A DNA stretch of 64,000 nt from a virus: IMG/VR virus record IMGVR_UViG_3300033978_000457, positions 1 to 64,000 of that record. One strand, 5' to 3'. Below the pieces are notes generated by a model. It saw nothing but the letters and a program-made list of their open reading frames with translations, made no database searches and was not told the DNA's origin. Shown in pieces: positions 13,924-56,297 of the stretch (positions within the stretch are counted from its first letter, which is position 1; every line of letters begins with the position of its first letter). Made by a program: the position numbers and the translations under genes.

Positions 13924-15258
13924 ATGTCAATTTATCTAAAAAGAGATACTAAGGTATTCCTTAAGAAAGGCACAGCCATCTGGGAAATCCCAGTTATGTC
14001 TGGGTTCAATTTCTCACAAGGGAACACGACTTCAGAAGTTGTTCTAAAAGAAATGGCTACAGCGGCCGGAGTTTCACGCAGAGGACGTCGAGTATTCAAT
14101 GATGCTCTAGCCCCAGCCGAATGGAGCTTCTCAACGTATATTAGACCATTTAGACCAACTGTACAAACTTCTATAGCTGCTACTGCTATGGTAGCTAACA
14201 CAGGGTATAAAATTCTATCTGCGGGGGATACTGTATGGGCAACTTACGGCGCGCCGCTTGGAACTGCCGGTACTTACTTTGTAGCTAACGGACCTGGAAC
14301 AGGTACAGGCACAGTACTTCCCGCATCTATTGCGGATGCTGCTGCAAACCACCACGCTGTAGAAGAAGTTCTATGGGCTCAATTCGTAGGTTTAGGTACA
14401 TACACACCAACTACGTTCACATTCCTAAATTTCGAAGCACCAAACAGCACCGACCTAGATATTCAATTTACTGGCGGTAACAATATTAGTTTAGGCGAAT
14501 TTGACCTATTTTTCATTCTAGGCGCCACATACGACAATGATAGAGACTATGACGATGTTGCATCAGATGACGTTGTTGTTTACAAGATTGCTAACTGCAT
14601 CATCAACCAAGCTAATGTTAACTTTGACGTTGACGGTATTGCAATGATTGAATGGTCAGGCATGGGCACAGTAATTTCTAGAGAAGCAGACTTCGATGCT
14701 CGTACAGCTATTACGCAAGGTGTTACAGCTACAAATAATTTCATTCGTAATAAATTAACGTCTTTAACAGTACTAGCTGCTAATACTACGGCATACCCAG
14801 GTGCCGCAAATAACACAGCTCCAGGCACCGCAGGCTCATATACAATTACTTTAACAGGCGGCTCTATGTCGTTCTCAAACAATGCTATGTTCTTAACACC
14901 AGAAACTTTAGGTGTTGTGAATCGTCCTATTGGTCACATTGCAGGCAATAAAGCAATTACAGGTAACTTTACAGCTTACATTGAGGAAGACGCGGCATTA
15001 AAAGATACTTCTGGGCAGTTACTGGCAGACGCTTTAGCTGATCTTACAACAGTAACAAATTCCTTTGCATTAACATTTATTCTTGGTGGTACAGGTAATC
15101 TACCAAGATTTCACATTAACCTACCAACGGCACACTTGGAAATTCCCAAAGTGCAGTCTGATGATATTATTTCAGTAGACATTGCATTCCATGGCCTACC
15201 ATCTACAATCGCAGGAACAAACGAAGCGACTCTGAAGTATGTCGGAGCGTCACTATAA
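13924..15258 (+). CDS. Major tail tube protein (T5 pb6-like)
   Basis: LKRDTKVF, GFNFSQ, FNDALAPAEWSFSTYIRP, FDVDGIAMIEWSG, LTPETLGVVN, PTAHLEIP. Confidence 0.88.
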   Translation: MSIYLKRDTKVFLKKGTAIWEIPVMSGFNFSQGNTTSEVVLKEMATAAGVSRRGRRVFNDALAPAEWSFSTYIRPFRPTVQTSIAATAMVANTGYKILSAGDTVWATYGAPLGTAGTYFVANGPGTGTGTVLPASIADAAANHHAVEEVLWAQFVGLGTYTPTTFTFLNFEAPNSTDLDIQFTGGNNISLGEFDLFFILGATYDNDRDYDDVASDDVVVYKIANCIINQANVNFDVDGIAMIEWSGMGTVISREADFDARTAITQGVTATNNFIRNKLTSLTVLAANTTAYPGAANNTAPGTAGSYTITLTGGSMSFSNNAMFLTPETLGVVNRPIGHIAGNKAITGNFTAYIEEDAALKDTSGQLLADALADLTTVTNSFALTFILGGTGNLPRFHINLPTAHLEIPKVQSDDIISVDIAFHGLPSTIAGTNEATLKYVGASL

Positions 15259-15330: not shown

Positions 15331-15345
15331 ATAAGAAGGAGAATT

Positions 15346-15756
15346 ATGAGTAAACTACAATCAATGTTAAAAGATACACTAGAGGCCTGGGTACCATTTG
15401 ATGGGCTACCGGGGTTTGAGGTTAAGCTAGCTTACCTAGCTAGGCCAGAGTTAGAAAGAATTAGAAAAGCTTCTACACGTCCAGTGTTTAAGAAGCATCA
15501 AAAAGAAGATGAACTAGATGGCGATATGTTTATGAAGCATTATGTTAAAGCTTCTATTCTTGATTGGAAAGGTTTAACATTAGAATACGCTTCGCAACTT
15601 CTTCCAATTGAAGTACCAAAAGATATACCATTAAATGAGACAATCGACTTCTCCCCCGAAGAAGCATTAAGTCTAGTTAAAAATTCTCCAGAATTTGACA
15701 AATGGTTAAATGAGATTGTGTTCAGCTTAGATTCTTTTCGTAGCCAACCTACGTGA
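15346..15756 (+). CDS. Tail assembly chaperone (G-like)
   Basis: Between tail tube and tape measure; AAGGAG RBS; acidic 136 aa. Confidence 0.8.
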   Translation: MSKLQSMLKDTLEAWVPFDGLPGFEVKLAYLARPELERIRKASTRPVFKKHQKEDELDGDMFMKHYVKASILDWKGLTLEYASQLLPIEVPKDIPLNETIDFSPEEALSLVKNSPEFDKWLNEIVFSLDSFRSQPT

Positions 15757-16126
15757 AGATACAGTTACTGACTTAGAAAAATACCTAAAAAGCAGCGAGA
15801 GCAAAATAGATAAAAAACGTTACTTAATGTTGATGGAAGAACGAGGTTTAGATCCTGATCCAGACAAGATTCCTGTAGGTTATGAAGATCTATCTTATGA
15901 TGCTCAGTTGTGTTTAAACATATACGGCAGGTTGGGAAATAGAGTTTACGGAGACGTAGGTTTTGTGGGCAAGGACTATACCAACTTGCCAATACTTATC
16001 AAATTTCATGAAATAGTTAATACTGATTTTTTACTAGAAATGCTCAATATAATAGATGAGTACAATGTAGATAAGTCACAGAAAGCTATGAAAAAGGAAA
16101 TGGATAAGATAAAGAATAGCAAATGA
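15740..16126 (+). CDS. Tail assembly chaperone T-like segment, probably expressed by +1 frameshift
   Basis: Frame open from 15731; no RBS before ATG 15827; overlaps TCT TTT CGT at the end of the G-like ORF. Confidence 0.65.
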   Translation, partial: VANLREDTVTDLEKYLKSSESKIDKKRYLMLMEERGLDPDPDKIPVGYEDLSYDAQLCLNIYGRLGNRVYGDVGFVGKDYTNLPILIKFHEIVNTDFLLEMLNIIDEYNVDKSQKAMKKEMDKIKNSK

Positions 16127-19100
16127 TTAGCATAAAAGCGCTACTTACTATGGAAGGTAAAGGCTCTGATAAATTAGCAAGAGAAACAGAGCGTACTAGA
16201 GATAATCTAGACGAAGCAGCTCGCTTAGCGGGGGTATTGGACGCTAGACTAGGCAAAAGCGGTTCAAGTGCTGCTCGAAGATCTGGTGCTTTTAATGATA
16301 GAGATGGCATTAGCACTAAAGAAAATAGAGGTGCCAAAGGAGTAGCGGGTCAAAGAGGCGCTGCGGGCAGAGACATGGCTGGTCTTCGGGATGCCTCAGA
16401 TAGCACAAGTGGCATAGTTGCTGCTTATGCTACCGCGGCGGCTAACATGTTTGCTATTACGGCTGCGTTTAAAGCTTTAGCCGATGCGGCAAAGGTAGAA
16501 CAGCTTAGAAAAGGTTTAGAGCTTGTAGGCGCTCAATCAGGCGTTTCTCTTGGCTTAGTATCTAAAAATATAGAAAAAGTTACCGGGTATGCTATTAGTT
16601 CAGCGGAAGCAATGAAGTCAGTTGCCTCCGCAACAGCGGCAGGGTTTAGCTCTAAAGAAATAGAAAGACTGGCTGTAGTTGCAAAAGGTGCATCTACTGC
16701 TCTTGGCAGAGATATGTCTGATGCTATGGATCGTCTTACAAGAGGTACCATAAAATTAGAACCAGAACTCTTAGATGAACTTGGTATCATGACTCGTATT
16801 GATGACGCTGTTAGTAGCTATGCAGACGCGCATGATAAAGCTAAATCTTCTCTTACACAGACAGAGCGTAGACAAGCATTTCTTAATGCAGTTTTAAAAG
16901 AAGGAGAAGATAAATTCGGCTCTATTGCTGCAGCCGTAGATGTAAGTCCTTTCGATAAATTGACAGCTTCTCTAAAAAATATGTCAACAACAGGCATAGG
17001 TGGGTTAGTAAAAGTTCTAGAGCCACTAATAAACCTTTTAGCCGATATGCCACAACTTATTTTATTGCCTTTAACAGGAATATTTCAATCTGTATTCTCT
17101 AAACTTGCTCCAACAGCACAGGCAGAATTTAAAAAGCTTGAAAATGTCACAAAACAAGCTGCAAATAAATTTGGCGATATGCGTGCCGCAGAATTTGTTA
17201 GAAGTCAAGATATAGGTTTAAAAATAGGAGACGCTCAATTTGTAGGAAGAACTAAATTAGACCTTAATCTAGAAGAAGGCACCCATTTATCTCTGCTTGA
17301 AAAACAAAAAAAGATACTACAAGATAATTTAATAATAGAACAACAAGCTTTAGCTGTTGCTAAGAAACAAAATCTTGAAAACTCTATAGAAGTAAAATTA
17401 GCAGAGCAAAGAGTAGATAATAATCGAGCTGCTTTAAATAACATGAATAGGGCTATATCAGAAACTAAAAGAGACCAACGCTATATAAACCCTATGAGTG
17501 CAGCGGCTGGAAAATTGGCGTATACCGATGCATCTACAAAAGCTTATGACTTAACTCAAACTTTATTTGATGAGAGGCAAGGAAATATTGCCGGACAAGC
17601 GGGAGCTTTATGGAAAGGTGCTGGAGCTCAGCTTGCTGCGGTAAACATAGGCATGAAATCCTACAAAGCTAATTTAGACTTAGCAAATCAAGCAGCAGGA
17701 ACACAAGCAACTCTTGTATCAAGTTTATCAGGTTTATGGCTTAGAGCAGGTTTAACTGTAAAAGCTTTTGGAACTATTGGTAAACTTGCTTTGCAAGGGT
17801 TTACAGCTGCTCTTCCTTTTATAGGTTGGATAATTACAGGATTTACATTACTTACATCTCTTTTTGAAGCTATGAAAAGCGACAAAGATAGAGCAATTGA
17901 GGCAAGCAAACAGCAGCTTAAAGAGTTACTTGAGTCCAGTAAAAAAGTCAATGAAGAAGTTAAAAAATTTAGAGAAACAGGAAGATATGGTAATGCTTTT
18001 GAAGCAGAACTTACAAATATAAATGAAATTTATAGTAAATTAAAAGATGTTGAAAAACTAAAAAATAAATCATTTAATAATAGTGATAAAAAAACTCAAG
18101 AACAAGGTTATCTTGGCACAAGAAGTGAGTACCTTGCCGGAAAAGATATATTTGGAGGAGCGGAAGAAGCTCAAGCTTTAGAAAGTATTTTTAGAGGACT
18201 AGAATCTACTAAAGGAGTTGAATACGTCAAAAAATTAAGTATAAGTATGGTAGACGCTAAAGAGGCGGGAAAAGATTGGTTTAGTATATTGGAACCTGCT
18301 ATGAAAGGTTCTGAGGCTATAGCAAAATCTTGGTCAGATATTGGAGAAGCTGTAAAAACTGGCGGGCAGGCTGTTCGTAAATTTTGGGGAGATGACTTTT
18401 TCAAAACAGACTACTCAGAAATAGCTAATACTTTTAGAACTATAACTGCAGAAATGAAAGCTCAAGAACAATACATAACAGATCCTAAAGCAAAATTACA
18501 AGCAGATTCTGATATTATATCAAAATTTGTTGCTGGAGGAAAGGATATGTTTCTTGAGTTAGATAGAGTTATGGGGGAAAATACTACTACTTTTGCAGAT
18601 ATATATAAAGAATTAAGTAAAAAGCAAAATGAAATAAATACACTTACTGCAGCTGGAGATAAAGCAAGTCTTGATAGAGCAAAACAATTAACAACAGAAT
18701 TAAATAAACGCCAACAAGAAGTAAAAAAATTAATATCATCTTCCGGTGTATTAGCAAAAATAGCGCTAGAAGAATATAAAATGAAACTAGCTACTATAAA
18801 TCTTGAAAACGTTAAAAGTTCTCTTACTTTACAAGAAATTAGAAACTCAGCAAATCTTGCTAAAAATGCTATTACAGCCTCTAAGCAAGCACTAGAAAGA
18901 ATGAGAAATTTTCAGGGTTTTGACAATTTATCAGAGGGCTACGATAAAGCTGACGCTGTTAAACAAGCAGAAATAGAATTGCAAAATGCTAAAGACAGTG
19001 CTAAATTAAAAAATGATGTATTGGATAGAGAGTTTGAGTTAGCCGGCTTACAAAAAGAATTGATGCTACAAAAAGCTAGATTGGAATTAAGTGATGCACA

Positions 19101-20649
19101 AGCAGAATTTGATAAAAAATATGTAATTACTAATCTTGTAAATACACTAAGTATGGGCATGTTATCTTTACAAGGGGCAGAATATGCCGTTGATAAACAA
19201 CGATTAGAAACTATGACTAAAATAGTAGGGTTACTGGGCGACACAGAAACTATTGGAGCTAGAACAAACGCTGCAAATAAAGCAGCTAATACTCTAGAGG
19301 TAAAAACAAAAGAACAAGCCCTTGAAACTACAAAAGAAGCTTACAGACAAAGTCTTACAAACTTGAAAAAAGAATTAGATATAGTTACAGCTAGATTAAA
19401 AGTAGAGCAAGAAATTATTGCTTTAAAAAGAGAAGCATTTAACAATGAACGAGAGTTACAAAGAGTAAAACAAAGTAATGCTGCTGCTAGAAGCGCTTCT
19501 GGAGAACTAGATATTGTTAGTCAACTAAGACAAGATGCAGACAGGGCTCTTGGAAGTCTTTTTGATAAGATAGTAAGCGAGACCAAAAGAGCAAGCGAGG
19601 AAGAAGATAAAATTAAGGGGCTTAAAACTCAACAAAACCTAGCAGCAGAACAACTAGCAAAGACTTATACGTCTGGACAGGGAGACTTACCAACCGCACA
19701 GAAAAATCTCAATGACGCTACTAGAGAGTTAACTACGGTTCAAGATCTCCACACACAAAAAACACTTACGGCAGCAACTGCTATAGCTCTTTTAGTAGAA
19801 GCATTTAATAACCTTACAGGTAAATTAGAAGACGCAGGAAATCTACCTATGCAACTAGAGCGGGGAGTAGGTGCGTCAAAACAACGTCTAGCTAAAGCAC
19901 AAGCTTCAGTGGGAATGAATATGATGGGTGCTGGTGACGAATTTAGCGCGGCATTAGATGCTCGTTGGCTTGCAACAAAGGATGACGTATATAAAGGAGA
20001 CTACGATAAATTTCTAAAAAGCGATGATGTTAAGTTAATTAAAGAAGCCTCATTACGTATGGCAGAATTTAATCTTATAGCAGACAAAACTGCCGAAATA
20101 TCTGTAGCATTTGGCGAGCAGTTAGCAGGAGCTTTCACTTCTATTATTGACGGCTCTAAAGATGCTGGGGAAGCTTTTGCAGATATGGCTCTTTCTATGC
20201 TTAAAATGATAGCGGAACTTATAGCTCAGCTAATAGCTATGGCAGCTATTAAAGCAACAGCAGCAGCATTTGGCATTCCTCTAGCAGACGGGGGTATAAT
20301 GCCAGGAGCCCAAGCAATGGCTAGCGGCGGTATTATGAATAGAGCGACTGGCTCTGGCCATCAAGGTGTCATAAACAAGCCTACTTTCTTAGTTGGTGAA
20401 GGTAAAATGAACGAAGCTGTGGTTCCTCTGCCTAATGGCAGGGCAATACCAGTTCAGATGCATGGTAATAACACGTCTAGCAACAATGTGCAAGTTAACG
20501 TAAATTTAAGCCAAAATGGCGACGCAAGAACAAGCACACAGGGTCCAGACATGAATAGTCTAGGAGCAGCTATTGCAGCCGTAGTTCAAAAAGAACTACT
20601 TGCTCAAAAGGCTCCAGGGGGTATCTTAAGTAGATACGGAGCTGCTTAA
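16123..20649 (+). CDS. Tape measure protein
   Basis: 1508 aa, helical and Ala-rich; T5 pb2-like N-terminus (LGRDMSDAMDRLTRGTIKLEPELLDELGI); lambda H-like C-terminus (GEGKMNEAVVPLPNGR...PGGILS). Confidence 0.92.
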   Translation: MISIKALLTMEGKGSDKLARETERTRDNLDEAARLAGVLDARLGKSGSSAARRSGAFNDRDGISTKENRGAKGVAGQRGAAGRDMAGLRDASDSTSGIVAAYATAAANMFAITAAFKALADAAKVEQLRKGLELVGAQSGVSLGLVSKNIEKVTGYAISSAEAMKSVASATAAGFSSKEIERLAVVAKGASTALGRDMSDAMDRLTRGTIKLEPELLDELGIMTRIDDAVSSYADAHDKAKSSLTQTERRQAFLNAVLKEGEDKFGSIAAAVDVSPFDKLTASLKNMSTTGIGGLVKVLEPLINLLADMPQLILLPLTGIFQSVFSKLAPTAQAEFKKLENVTKQAANKFGDMRAAEFVRSQDIGLKIGDAQFVGRTKLDLNLEEGTHLSLLEKQKKILQDNLIIEQQALAVAKKQNLENSIEVKLAEQRVDNNRAALNNMNRAISETKRDQRYINPMSAAAGKLAYTDASTKAYDLTQTLFDERQGNIAGQAGALWKGAGAQLAAVNIGMKSYKANLDLANQAAGTQATLVSSLSGLWLRAGLTVKAFGTIGKLALQGFTAALPFIGWIITGFTLLTSLFEAMKSDKDRAIEASKQQLKELLESSKKVNEEVKKFRETGRYGNAFEAELTNINEIYSKLKDVEKLKNKSFNNSDKKTQEQGYLGTRSEYLAGKDIFGGAEEAQALESIFRGLESTKGVEYVKKLSISMVDAKEAGKDWFSILEPAMKGSEAIAKSWSDIGEAVKTGGQAVRKFWGDDFFKTDYSEIANTFRTITAEMKAQEQYITDPKAKLQADSDIISKFVAGGKDMFLELDRVMGENTTTFADIYKELSKKQNEINTLTAAGDKASLDRAKQLTTELNKRQQEVKKLISSSGVLAKIALEEYKMKLATINLENVKSSLTLQEIRNSANLAKNAITASKQALERMRNFQGFDNLSEGYDKADAVKQAEIELQNAKDSAKLKNDVLDREFELAGLQKELMLQKARLELSDAQAEFDKKYVITNLVNTLSMGMLSLQGAEYAVDKQRLETMTKIVGLLGDTETIGARTNAANKAANTLEVKTKEQALETTKEAYRQSLTNLKKELDIVTARLKVEQEIIALKREAFNNERELQRVKQSNAAARSASGELDIVSQLRQDADRALGSLFDKIVSETKRASEEEDKIKGLKTQQNLAAEQLAKTYTSGQGDLPTAQKNLNDATRELTTVQDLHTQKTLTAATAIALLVEAFNNLTGKLEDAGNLPMQLERGVGASKQRLAKAQASVGMNMMGAGDEFSAALDARWLATKDDVYKGDYDKFLKSDDVKLIKEASLRMAEFNLIADKTAEISVAFGEQLAGAFTSIIDGSKDAGEAFADMALSMLKMIAELIAQLIAMAAIKATAAAFGIPLADGGIMPGAQAMASGGIMNRATGSGHQGVINKPTFLVGEGKMNEAVVPLPNGRAIPVQMHGNNTSSNNVQVNVNLSQNGDARTSTQGPDMNSLGAAIAAVVQKELLAQKAPGGILSRYGAA

Positions 20650-56204: not shown

Positions 56205-56297
56205 TGGTACTTCCGGCGGGAGTCGAACCCGCATTTTGCGGCTATCTACCGCTAAACACTTTATAAGGGTGGTAGTTTACCATTAACCTACGGAAGC
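56205..56297 (-). tRNA. tRNA with UAU anticodon (Ile by anticodon) and long variable arm
   Basis: Acceptor GCTTCCG/CGGAAGT-A-CCA; D arm GGTT/AACT; loop CT-TAT-AA; V arm GCGG-TAGATAG-CCGC; T arm GCGGG-TTCGACT-CCCGC. Confidence 0.8.

Follow-up and report, generated by a model that had tools for sequence, protein, structure and literature searches.

The window analyzed here, a 64,000-nt stretch of viral DNA (IMG/VR record IMGVR_UViG_3300033978_000457, positions 1 to 64,000), is part of a 100,125-bp genome with 21 tRNA genes. Its tail genes follow one another in the order tail terminator (PF23818), major tail protein, ORF1, ORF2, tape measure protein and minor tail proteins, which is the arrangement of T5. 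The proteins encoded by ORF1 and ORF2 are ∼37% identical to their T5 counterparts; a nucleotide search of the region against phage records returned no match, and relatives are detectable at the protein level only. The features of the locus are:

13924..15258, + strand: gene for the major tail (tube) protein, the upstream neighbor of the chaperone pair (phrog_3575 major tail protein, E = 3.4e-46).
15336..15341, + strand: Shine-Dalgarno (SD) sequence AAGGAG of ORF1, read from the sequence (duplex energy −8.8 kcal/mol).
15346..15756, + strand: ORF1, a G-like tail assembly chaperone of 136 aa, the product of standard decoding (phrog_313 tail assembly chaperone, E = 2e-16).
15728..15730, + strand: TAG in the +1 frame, the 5′ limit of the possible shift window.
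15736..15742, + strand: proposed shift site TTT CGT A, the sole in-frame TTT_C in the overlap, with TTT_C invariant in relatives.
15740..15826, + strand: +1-frame coding stretch without ATG, GTG or TTG, reachable only from ORF1.
15741..15743, + strand: TAG closing the −1 frame.
15754..15756, + strand: TGA stop of ORF1, the 3′ limit of the shift window.
15827..16126, + strand: the extent of ORF2 that a gene caller would give, 99 aa counted from the first ATG and covering most of the T-like domain toward its C terminus (match to phrog_3914, a tail assembly chaperone family, E = 2.2e-13).
16123..20649, + strand: gene for the tape measure protein, 1508 aa (phrog_3779, E = 2.9e-43), with a weak SD (−1.5 kcal/mol).

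From position 15721, the 0-frame codons at the end of ORF1 read TTC AGC TTA GAT TCT TTT CGT AGC CAA CCT ACG TGA, and those from GAT onward are as given in a preliminary description of this DNA. That description had also placed the downstream ORF in the +1 frame, open from 15731 with 32 codons before an ATG that lacks a ribosome binding site, and had predicted a fusion of ∼259 aa, all of which a rereading of the locus bears out. After the TAG at 15728 to 15730, the +1 frame is open from 15731 to a TGA at 16124 to 16126 (the ORF1/ORF2 overlap is 23 nt), and it contains no ATG, GTG or TTG ahead of the ATG at 15827 (codon 33), which is followed by a second ATG at 15833. The duplex energies with the anti-SD are +0.4 kcal/mol at 15827 and +1.2 kcal/mol at 15833, worse than at ∼95 to 100% of 42 gene starts in the window (median −5.05 kcal/mol). 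Computed translation through the shift site gives a product of 259 aa with the junction ...LDSF-VANLR.... A −1 frameshift of the lambda type was also considered and is excluded, since the TAG at 15741 to 15743 closes the −1 frame.

Pfam Phage_TAC_5 matched ORF1 only weakly (E = 0.025, below the family cut-off). Exhaustive comparison of an AlphaFold model of ORF1 (pLDDT 83.7) with 48,161 PDB chains identified solved tail assembly chaperones (TACs) as the two best structural matches, namely B. subtilis YqbN (PDB ID: 3klu, Z 5.3) and the HK97 TAC (PDB ID: 2ob9, Z 4.2), with unrelated chains at Z 2.5 or lower; for this predicted fold the Z values are modest but appear specific to TACs. The TAC folds were recovered only by this exhaustive VIA search: Foldseek against the PDB gave no match at an E of 0.001 or better for the models of ORF1 and the T part, and a PDB sequence search with profiles of both parts gave no significant match. 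By gene order, protein family and the predicted fold of ORF1, ORF1 and ORF2 very probably represent the G/GT-type TAC pair of a T5-like siphovirus.

Junction loci were examined in T5, Eos, ten other demerecviruses from GenBank (covering Sugarlandvirus, Thalassavirus, Vipunavirus, Vibrio phages D386 and D260, and Serratia phage Slocum), and 24 plus 80 IMG/VR loci, the 24 found via ORF2 and the 80 via an ORF1 profile. ORF2 lies in the +1 frame relative to ORF1 in 36/36 of the first loci, including T5, Eos, Sugarlandvirus, Thalassavirus, Vipunavirus and Slocum, and in 79/79 loci found with the ORF1 profile. The length of the overlap ranges from 11 to 119 nt among relatives, and every overlap read contains exactly one in-frame TTT_C. 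In Vibrio phage D386, which has the 11-nt overlap, the whole shift window is AAC AAC TTT CGT TAA, four codons.

The preliminary description had made its proposal depend on conservation of the TTT CGN site in T5-like phages, and the site proved to be conserved: TTT_C is invariant in 79 distinct 105-nt contexts, in most of which the next codon is CGN. The 0-frame A-site codon in these contexts is CGT (59), CGC (11), CGA (3), CAA (5) or CAT (1), and the +1-frame A-site codon is GTA in 48, GCA in 10, GTG in 6 and GTT in 5, with a few others. The codon before TTT_C is variable, most often AAC (34) or AAT (21), then ACT (5), CAC (5), TCT (3) and TCC (3), with the rarer ACC (2), TAC (2) and single occurrences of TCA, TTG, CGC and CAT. 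TTT_C comprises the most conserved nucleotides of the region, and no other codon of the overlap is conserved among relatives. TTT CAA or TTT CAT stands in place of TTT CGN in L008, L010 and five further IMG/VR loci. Since CAA or CAT occurs in this minority of relatives, the Arg codon would not be essential to the site and UUU_C would be.

Codon choice at the site was compared with that of the surrounding sequence. The Phe at the site is always encoded by TTT, while an equally conserved Phe located five codons before it is TTT in some sequences and TTC in others; AGA and AGG never encode the Arg at the site, even though these genomes use AGA for Arg more often than any other codon. From codon usage, the chance of finding TTT plus CGN for an F-R pair is 0.23 to 0.36 per lineage. 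With ∼10 to 17 lineages in which synonymous sites are saturated, the probability that TTT plus CGN has been retained by chance is therefore about 1e-5 or lower, and on this measure of codon usage the conservation of the shift site is in excess of what the protein sequence requires. The window taken by itself is less informative: TTT followed by C occurs in frame 68 times in its ∼19,900 codons, which corresponds to a chance of ∼2.7% for an in-frame TTT_C within an 8-codon overlap, so a single genome alone is weak evidence.

Judged by its pattern of substitution, the sequence running from the ORF1 stop up to the first ATG is evolving as a +1-frame coding stretch. Using tblastn, the +1-frame translation aligns from residue 1 to 3 in 880/885 phage records, and in an alignment of 29 sequences the product can be aligned from the first post-shift residue onward. 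An alignment of 13 sequences identifies L13, K26 and Y29 as invariant, all upstream of Met31, which corresponds to the ATG at 15827. Substitutions at +1-frame codon positions 1/2/3 in this stretch number 85/60/155 (chi-square p = 3e-11, from 20 pairwise comparisons in which the pairs are not fully independent), and in close pairs the changes are mostly synonymous (e.g. 8 to 1, 5 to 0). The first canonical start varies by lineage, falling at alignment columns 27, 34 to 37, or 47 to 48, mostly without an SD; in the window there is none before column 34. In Eos, L008, L010 and Thalassavirus the conserved K..YL block comes before this first start. A fold model of the post-shift part (pLDDT 87.2) predicts helices at residues 2 to 19 and 26 to 36, and Met31 and Met33 fall inside the second of these, so initiation at either would cut the predicted helix. 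Taken together, the coding-type evolution, the invariant residues, the shifting start positions and the helix model suggest that translation must enter this stretch from ORF1.

Two separate CDS are annotated by gene callers and in all of the GenBank and RefSeq records examined. This is the arrangement expected if no recoding occurs, ORF2 is a gene in its own right that starts at ATG 15827, ATG 15833 or another internal start, and the open frame upstream is fortuitous. Such a gene would begin downstream of a stretch that carries coding-type substitutions and invariant residues, at a position that is not conserved and that lies beyond the K..YL block in four of the lineages named above, and in the window its start would be without an SD and within a predicted helix. 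The region upstream of 15827 is A-rich, and A-rich upstream regions can support SD-independent initiation; SD-like sequences also precede the internal ATG in a few lineages. Neither of these accounts for the invariant TTT_C or for the invariant +1 relation of the two ORFs, both of which an independent ORF2 leaves unexplained, and we regard this reading as unlikely.

The SD-like sequences in question, AAGGAG or GGGAG located ∼9 nt before the internal ATG, occur in L034 (Serratia phage Slocum), L011, L015 and L027 (alignment columns 34 to 35), with duplex energies of −5.8 to −8.3 kcal/mol. They are formed by K-E/R-E codons upstream of the conserved YL-M and are absent from the window. Since an SD-like sequence is combined with an ATG in these lineages, a separately initiated T-only product may be made there in addition.

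We consider it highly probable, on comparative grounds, that a programmed +1 ribosomal frameshift joins ORF1 and ORF2 in T5-like phages, T5 included. Most ribosomes would terminate at the TGA of ORF1, yielding the G-like chaperone of 136 aa. In a minority, peptidyl-tRNA-Phe positioned on UUU (15736 to 15738) in the P site would slip one base forward to UUC (15737 to 15739), after which GUA (15740 to 15742) would be read instead of CGU and translation would continue in the +1 frame to 16126; the resulting fusion would be 259 aa long and joined at ...LDSF|VANLR.... If lambda gpG and gpGT are a guide, the G part common to both products would serve as a coat on the tape measure protein, with the T part bringing in the tail tube protein. 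The slip of tRNA-Phe from UUU to UUC had been put forward in the preliminary description, and it gains support from the conserved frame relation, the conserved TTT_C, the coding-type evolution ahead of the ATG and the missing SD. The layout of the two ORFs, the family-wide frame relation and site, the coding-type constraint ahead of the ATG and the TAC family and fold of ORF1 are direct observations, and from there we infer that the recoding is ribosomal and in the +1 direction, how efficient it is, and what the T part does.

A −2 shift (...DSF-F-VANL...) reaches the same frame as a +1 shift and is indistinguishable from it in sequence, and there is precedent for the ambiguity, as in some systems shifts originally taken for +1 have later proved to be −2 (PMC10885494). 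Following a −2 slip, however, tRNA-Phe would land on a triplet N-Y-U that is variable in relatives (CUU, CCU, AUU, ACU, GCU, CAU), whereas a +1 slip gives a perfect UUC in every sequence, and this re-pairing of tRNA-Phe from UUU to UUC is the sole one that is conserved. A shift at the same place but on a neighboring codon meets the difficulty that no other codon in the overlap is conserved and that the window available in D386 is only four codons long. We assign these other routes through the same site a very slight probability.

The frames could also be joined before translation, if RNA polymerase dropped one U in a T run and thereby placed ORF1 and ORF2 in one frame. There is a short T run at the site (4 T in the window, 3 in relatives with AAC TTT C), but productive slippage, where known, depends on stretches of ∼7 or more A or T (PMC5009743), and most relatives have only 3 T (AAC TTT C in 34/79 contexts). 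Transcriptional slippage would, moreover, leave the conserved C after the run unexplained, and we find it scarcely credible as the origin of the fusion.

For the +1 ribosomal shift, the signal appears to be minimal, consisting of UUU then C and usually of UUU_CGY_A. We looked for the stimulatory elements associated with other recoding sites. The 99 nt downstream show no excess of folding stability over shuffled sequences (z = +0.8), and RNAalifold on 17 relatives returned 0 consensus pairs, giving no indication of a downstream RNA structure. Upstream of the site there is no SD-like element, the energies being mostly ∼+0.5 kcal/mol and never below −3.1 kcal/mol. Nor is there a stop codon at a fixed nearby position that might act as stimulator, with the 0-frame stop located 1 to 19 codons from the site. 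At a PA-X-type site the A-site CGU would be rare or slowly decoded in the host; CGT is used in the phage at 7.7 per 1000 codons and makes up 18% of its Arg codons, and E. coli, in which T5 grows, counts CGU among its major codons. The phage tRNA genes include tRNA-Arg(ACG), which reads CGU, and tRNA-Val(UAC), which reads GUA, and there is no tRNA-Phe gene among the 21 tRNA genes of the 100-kb genome. The coordinates of the tRNA genes concerned are 92365 to 92439 and 95900 to 95974 in the genome (C1), beyond the window, and 56205 to 56297 in the window.

Seven other in-frame TTT_CGN sites occur in genes of the window, with no obvious avoidance. From their presence, the bare TTT_CGN motif cannot be very efficient, or else further context exists that has gone unrecognized, and the efficiency of frameshifting is probably low. 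A low efficiency is what would be needed for a G:GT ratio like that of lambda, which is ∼30:1 (PMC5009743). We advance, tentatively and as something short of an even bet, the hypothesis that UUU_CGY(A) is a self-sufficient +1 signal that requires no RNA structure and acts on bacterial ribosomes just as, in influenza PA-X, it acts on eukaryotic ones, that it has been fixed throughout the history of T5-like phages in place of the −1 G/GT heptamer, and that it sets the G:GT ratio and here possibly also the amount of tape measure protein.

The last of these suggestions arises from the junction with the next gene. In the window the ATG of the tape measure gene overlaps the stop of ORF2 (ATGA, 16123 to 16126). 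Given this overlap and the weak SD of the tape measure gene, translation of the tape measure protein may be partly coupled to GT synthesis, if only frameshifted ribosomes reach ORF2. The ATGA overlap is not conserved: in T5 an HNH endonuclease gene and a terminator intervene, and in Eos and Sugarlandvirus gaps of ∼84 nt occupy the corresponding position.

The lambda gpG/gpGT frameshift is conserved in the TAC genes of long-tailed dsDNA phages (Levin 1993; Xu, Hendrix and Duda 2004; via PMC5009743). As in lambda, two overlapping ORFs lie between the tail tube and tape measure genes, the first has the TAC family assignment and fold and the second is without a start signal of its own, only a few codons separate the site from the stop that ends the first ORF, and a short and a long product that share an N-terminal domain are expected. 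Unlike lambda, the proposed shift is +1 rather than −1, there is no X_XXY_YYZ heptamer, the site instead being UUU_C(GN), and the T part of the window has no Pfam family and no structural match in the PDB. With the −1 frame closed and ORF2 in the +1 frame in all relatives, the locus is thus a variant of G/GT in direction and not a canonical member.

The preliminary description had likened the site to the +1 signal of influenza PA-X, of which UCC_UUU_CGU is the minimal cassette (Jagger 2012; Firth 2012; cited in PMC5009743). The two share the UUU_CGU core, the capacity of P-site tRNA-Phe to re-pair on UUC, the +1 direction and the lack of a downstream RNA structure. They differ in that the phage site would operate on a bacterial ribosome in a bacterial host, in that some phage lineages have CGC, CGA or even CAA or CAT at the position of CGU, and in the E-site codon, which is UCU here and AAC or AAU in most relatives. 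Since this preceding codon is not conserved, only UUU_CGN resembles PA-X: the core of the comparison stands, and the UCU that had been counted in the signal is not part of it.

Bacterial UUU_Y sites are at least as close a model as PA-X. UUU_Y is prone to +1 shifts in bacteria, as seen in an error frameshift in E. coli argI and in the Yersinia YopN-TyeA fusion (PMC5009743), and these sites have in common with the phage site a UUU followed by a pyrimidine, a +1 shift and a bacterial ribosome, with neither a stop codon nor an RNA structure needed. The argI case is an error event and YopN-TyeA is a single fusion of cellular genes, whereas the phage signal is family-wide and fixed in a morphogenesis module. 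Programmed +1 shifting by re-pairing of the P-site tRNA would also be shared with CUU_UGA of prfB (RF2) and CCC_UGA of Listeria phages PSA and A118. In prfB and PSA/A118, however, a stop codon occupies the A site, where the T5-type site has a sense codon and its 0-frame stop further on, and prfB has an upstream SD-like element and PSA cps a pseudoknot, in contrast to the T5-type site with no upstream SD-like element.

A search of the literature, including the PRFect paper and a recoding review (PMC5009743), found no description of a frameshift in the chaperone genes of T5-like phages. According to a genome note, no frameshift signal is predicted in T5 (PMC6256483), which was probably said with −1 heptamers in mind. 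The chaperone pair of this classic model phage has so far counted as exceptional, standing outside the near-universal G/GT frameshift (PMC6256483, citing Zivanovic 2014). The comparative evidence suggests instead that T5 and the whole family conform to the G/GT rule, with an unusual direction and a very small signal. E. coli and T5 would accordingly make it practicable to study in bacteria the UUU_CGN +1 signal familiar from influenza PA-X. Sites of the UUU_C type would escape predictors that insist on a rarer 0-frame codon in the A site or on RNA structure.

A joined ORF1/ORF2 CDS was found in 0/12 annotated records examined. Using the +1-frame products of the window and of T5 as queries, we detected no fused or joined G-T protein among 5.8 billion protein clusters, a blank that is weak evidence. 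The frameshift reading bears on hundreds of deposited demerecvirus genomes that lack a joined chaperone CDS, some of them with a probably artefactual GTG start of ORF2. Sugarlandvirus records start ORF2 at a GTG immediately after TTT_C, probably an artefact of choosing the longest ORF, and one that conceals the arrangement for frameshifting; in L027 (1583, Klebsiella phage vB_Kpn_K7PH164C4), the GTG start of ORF2 is without an SD, at +0.5 kcal/mol.
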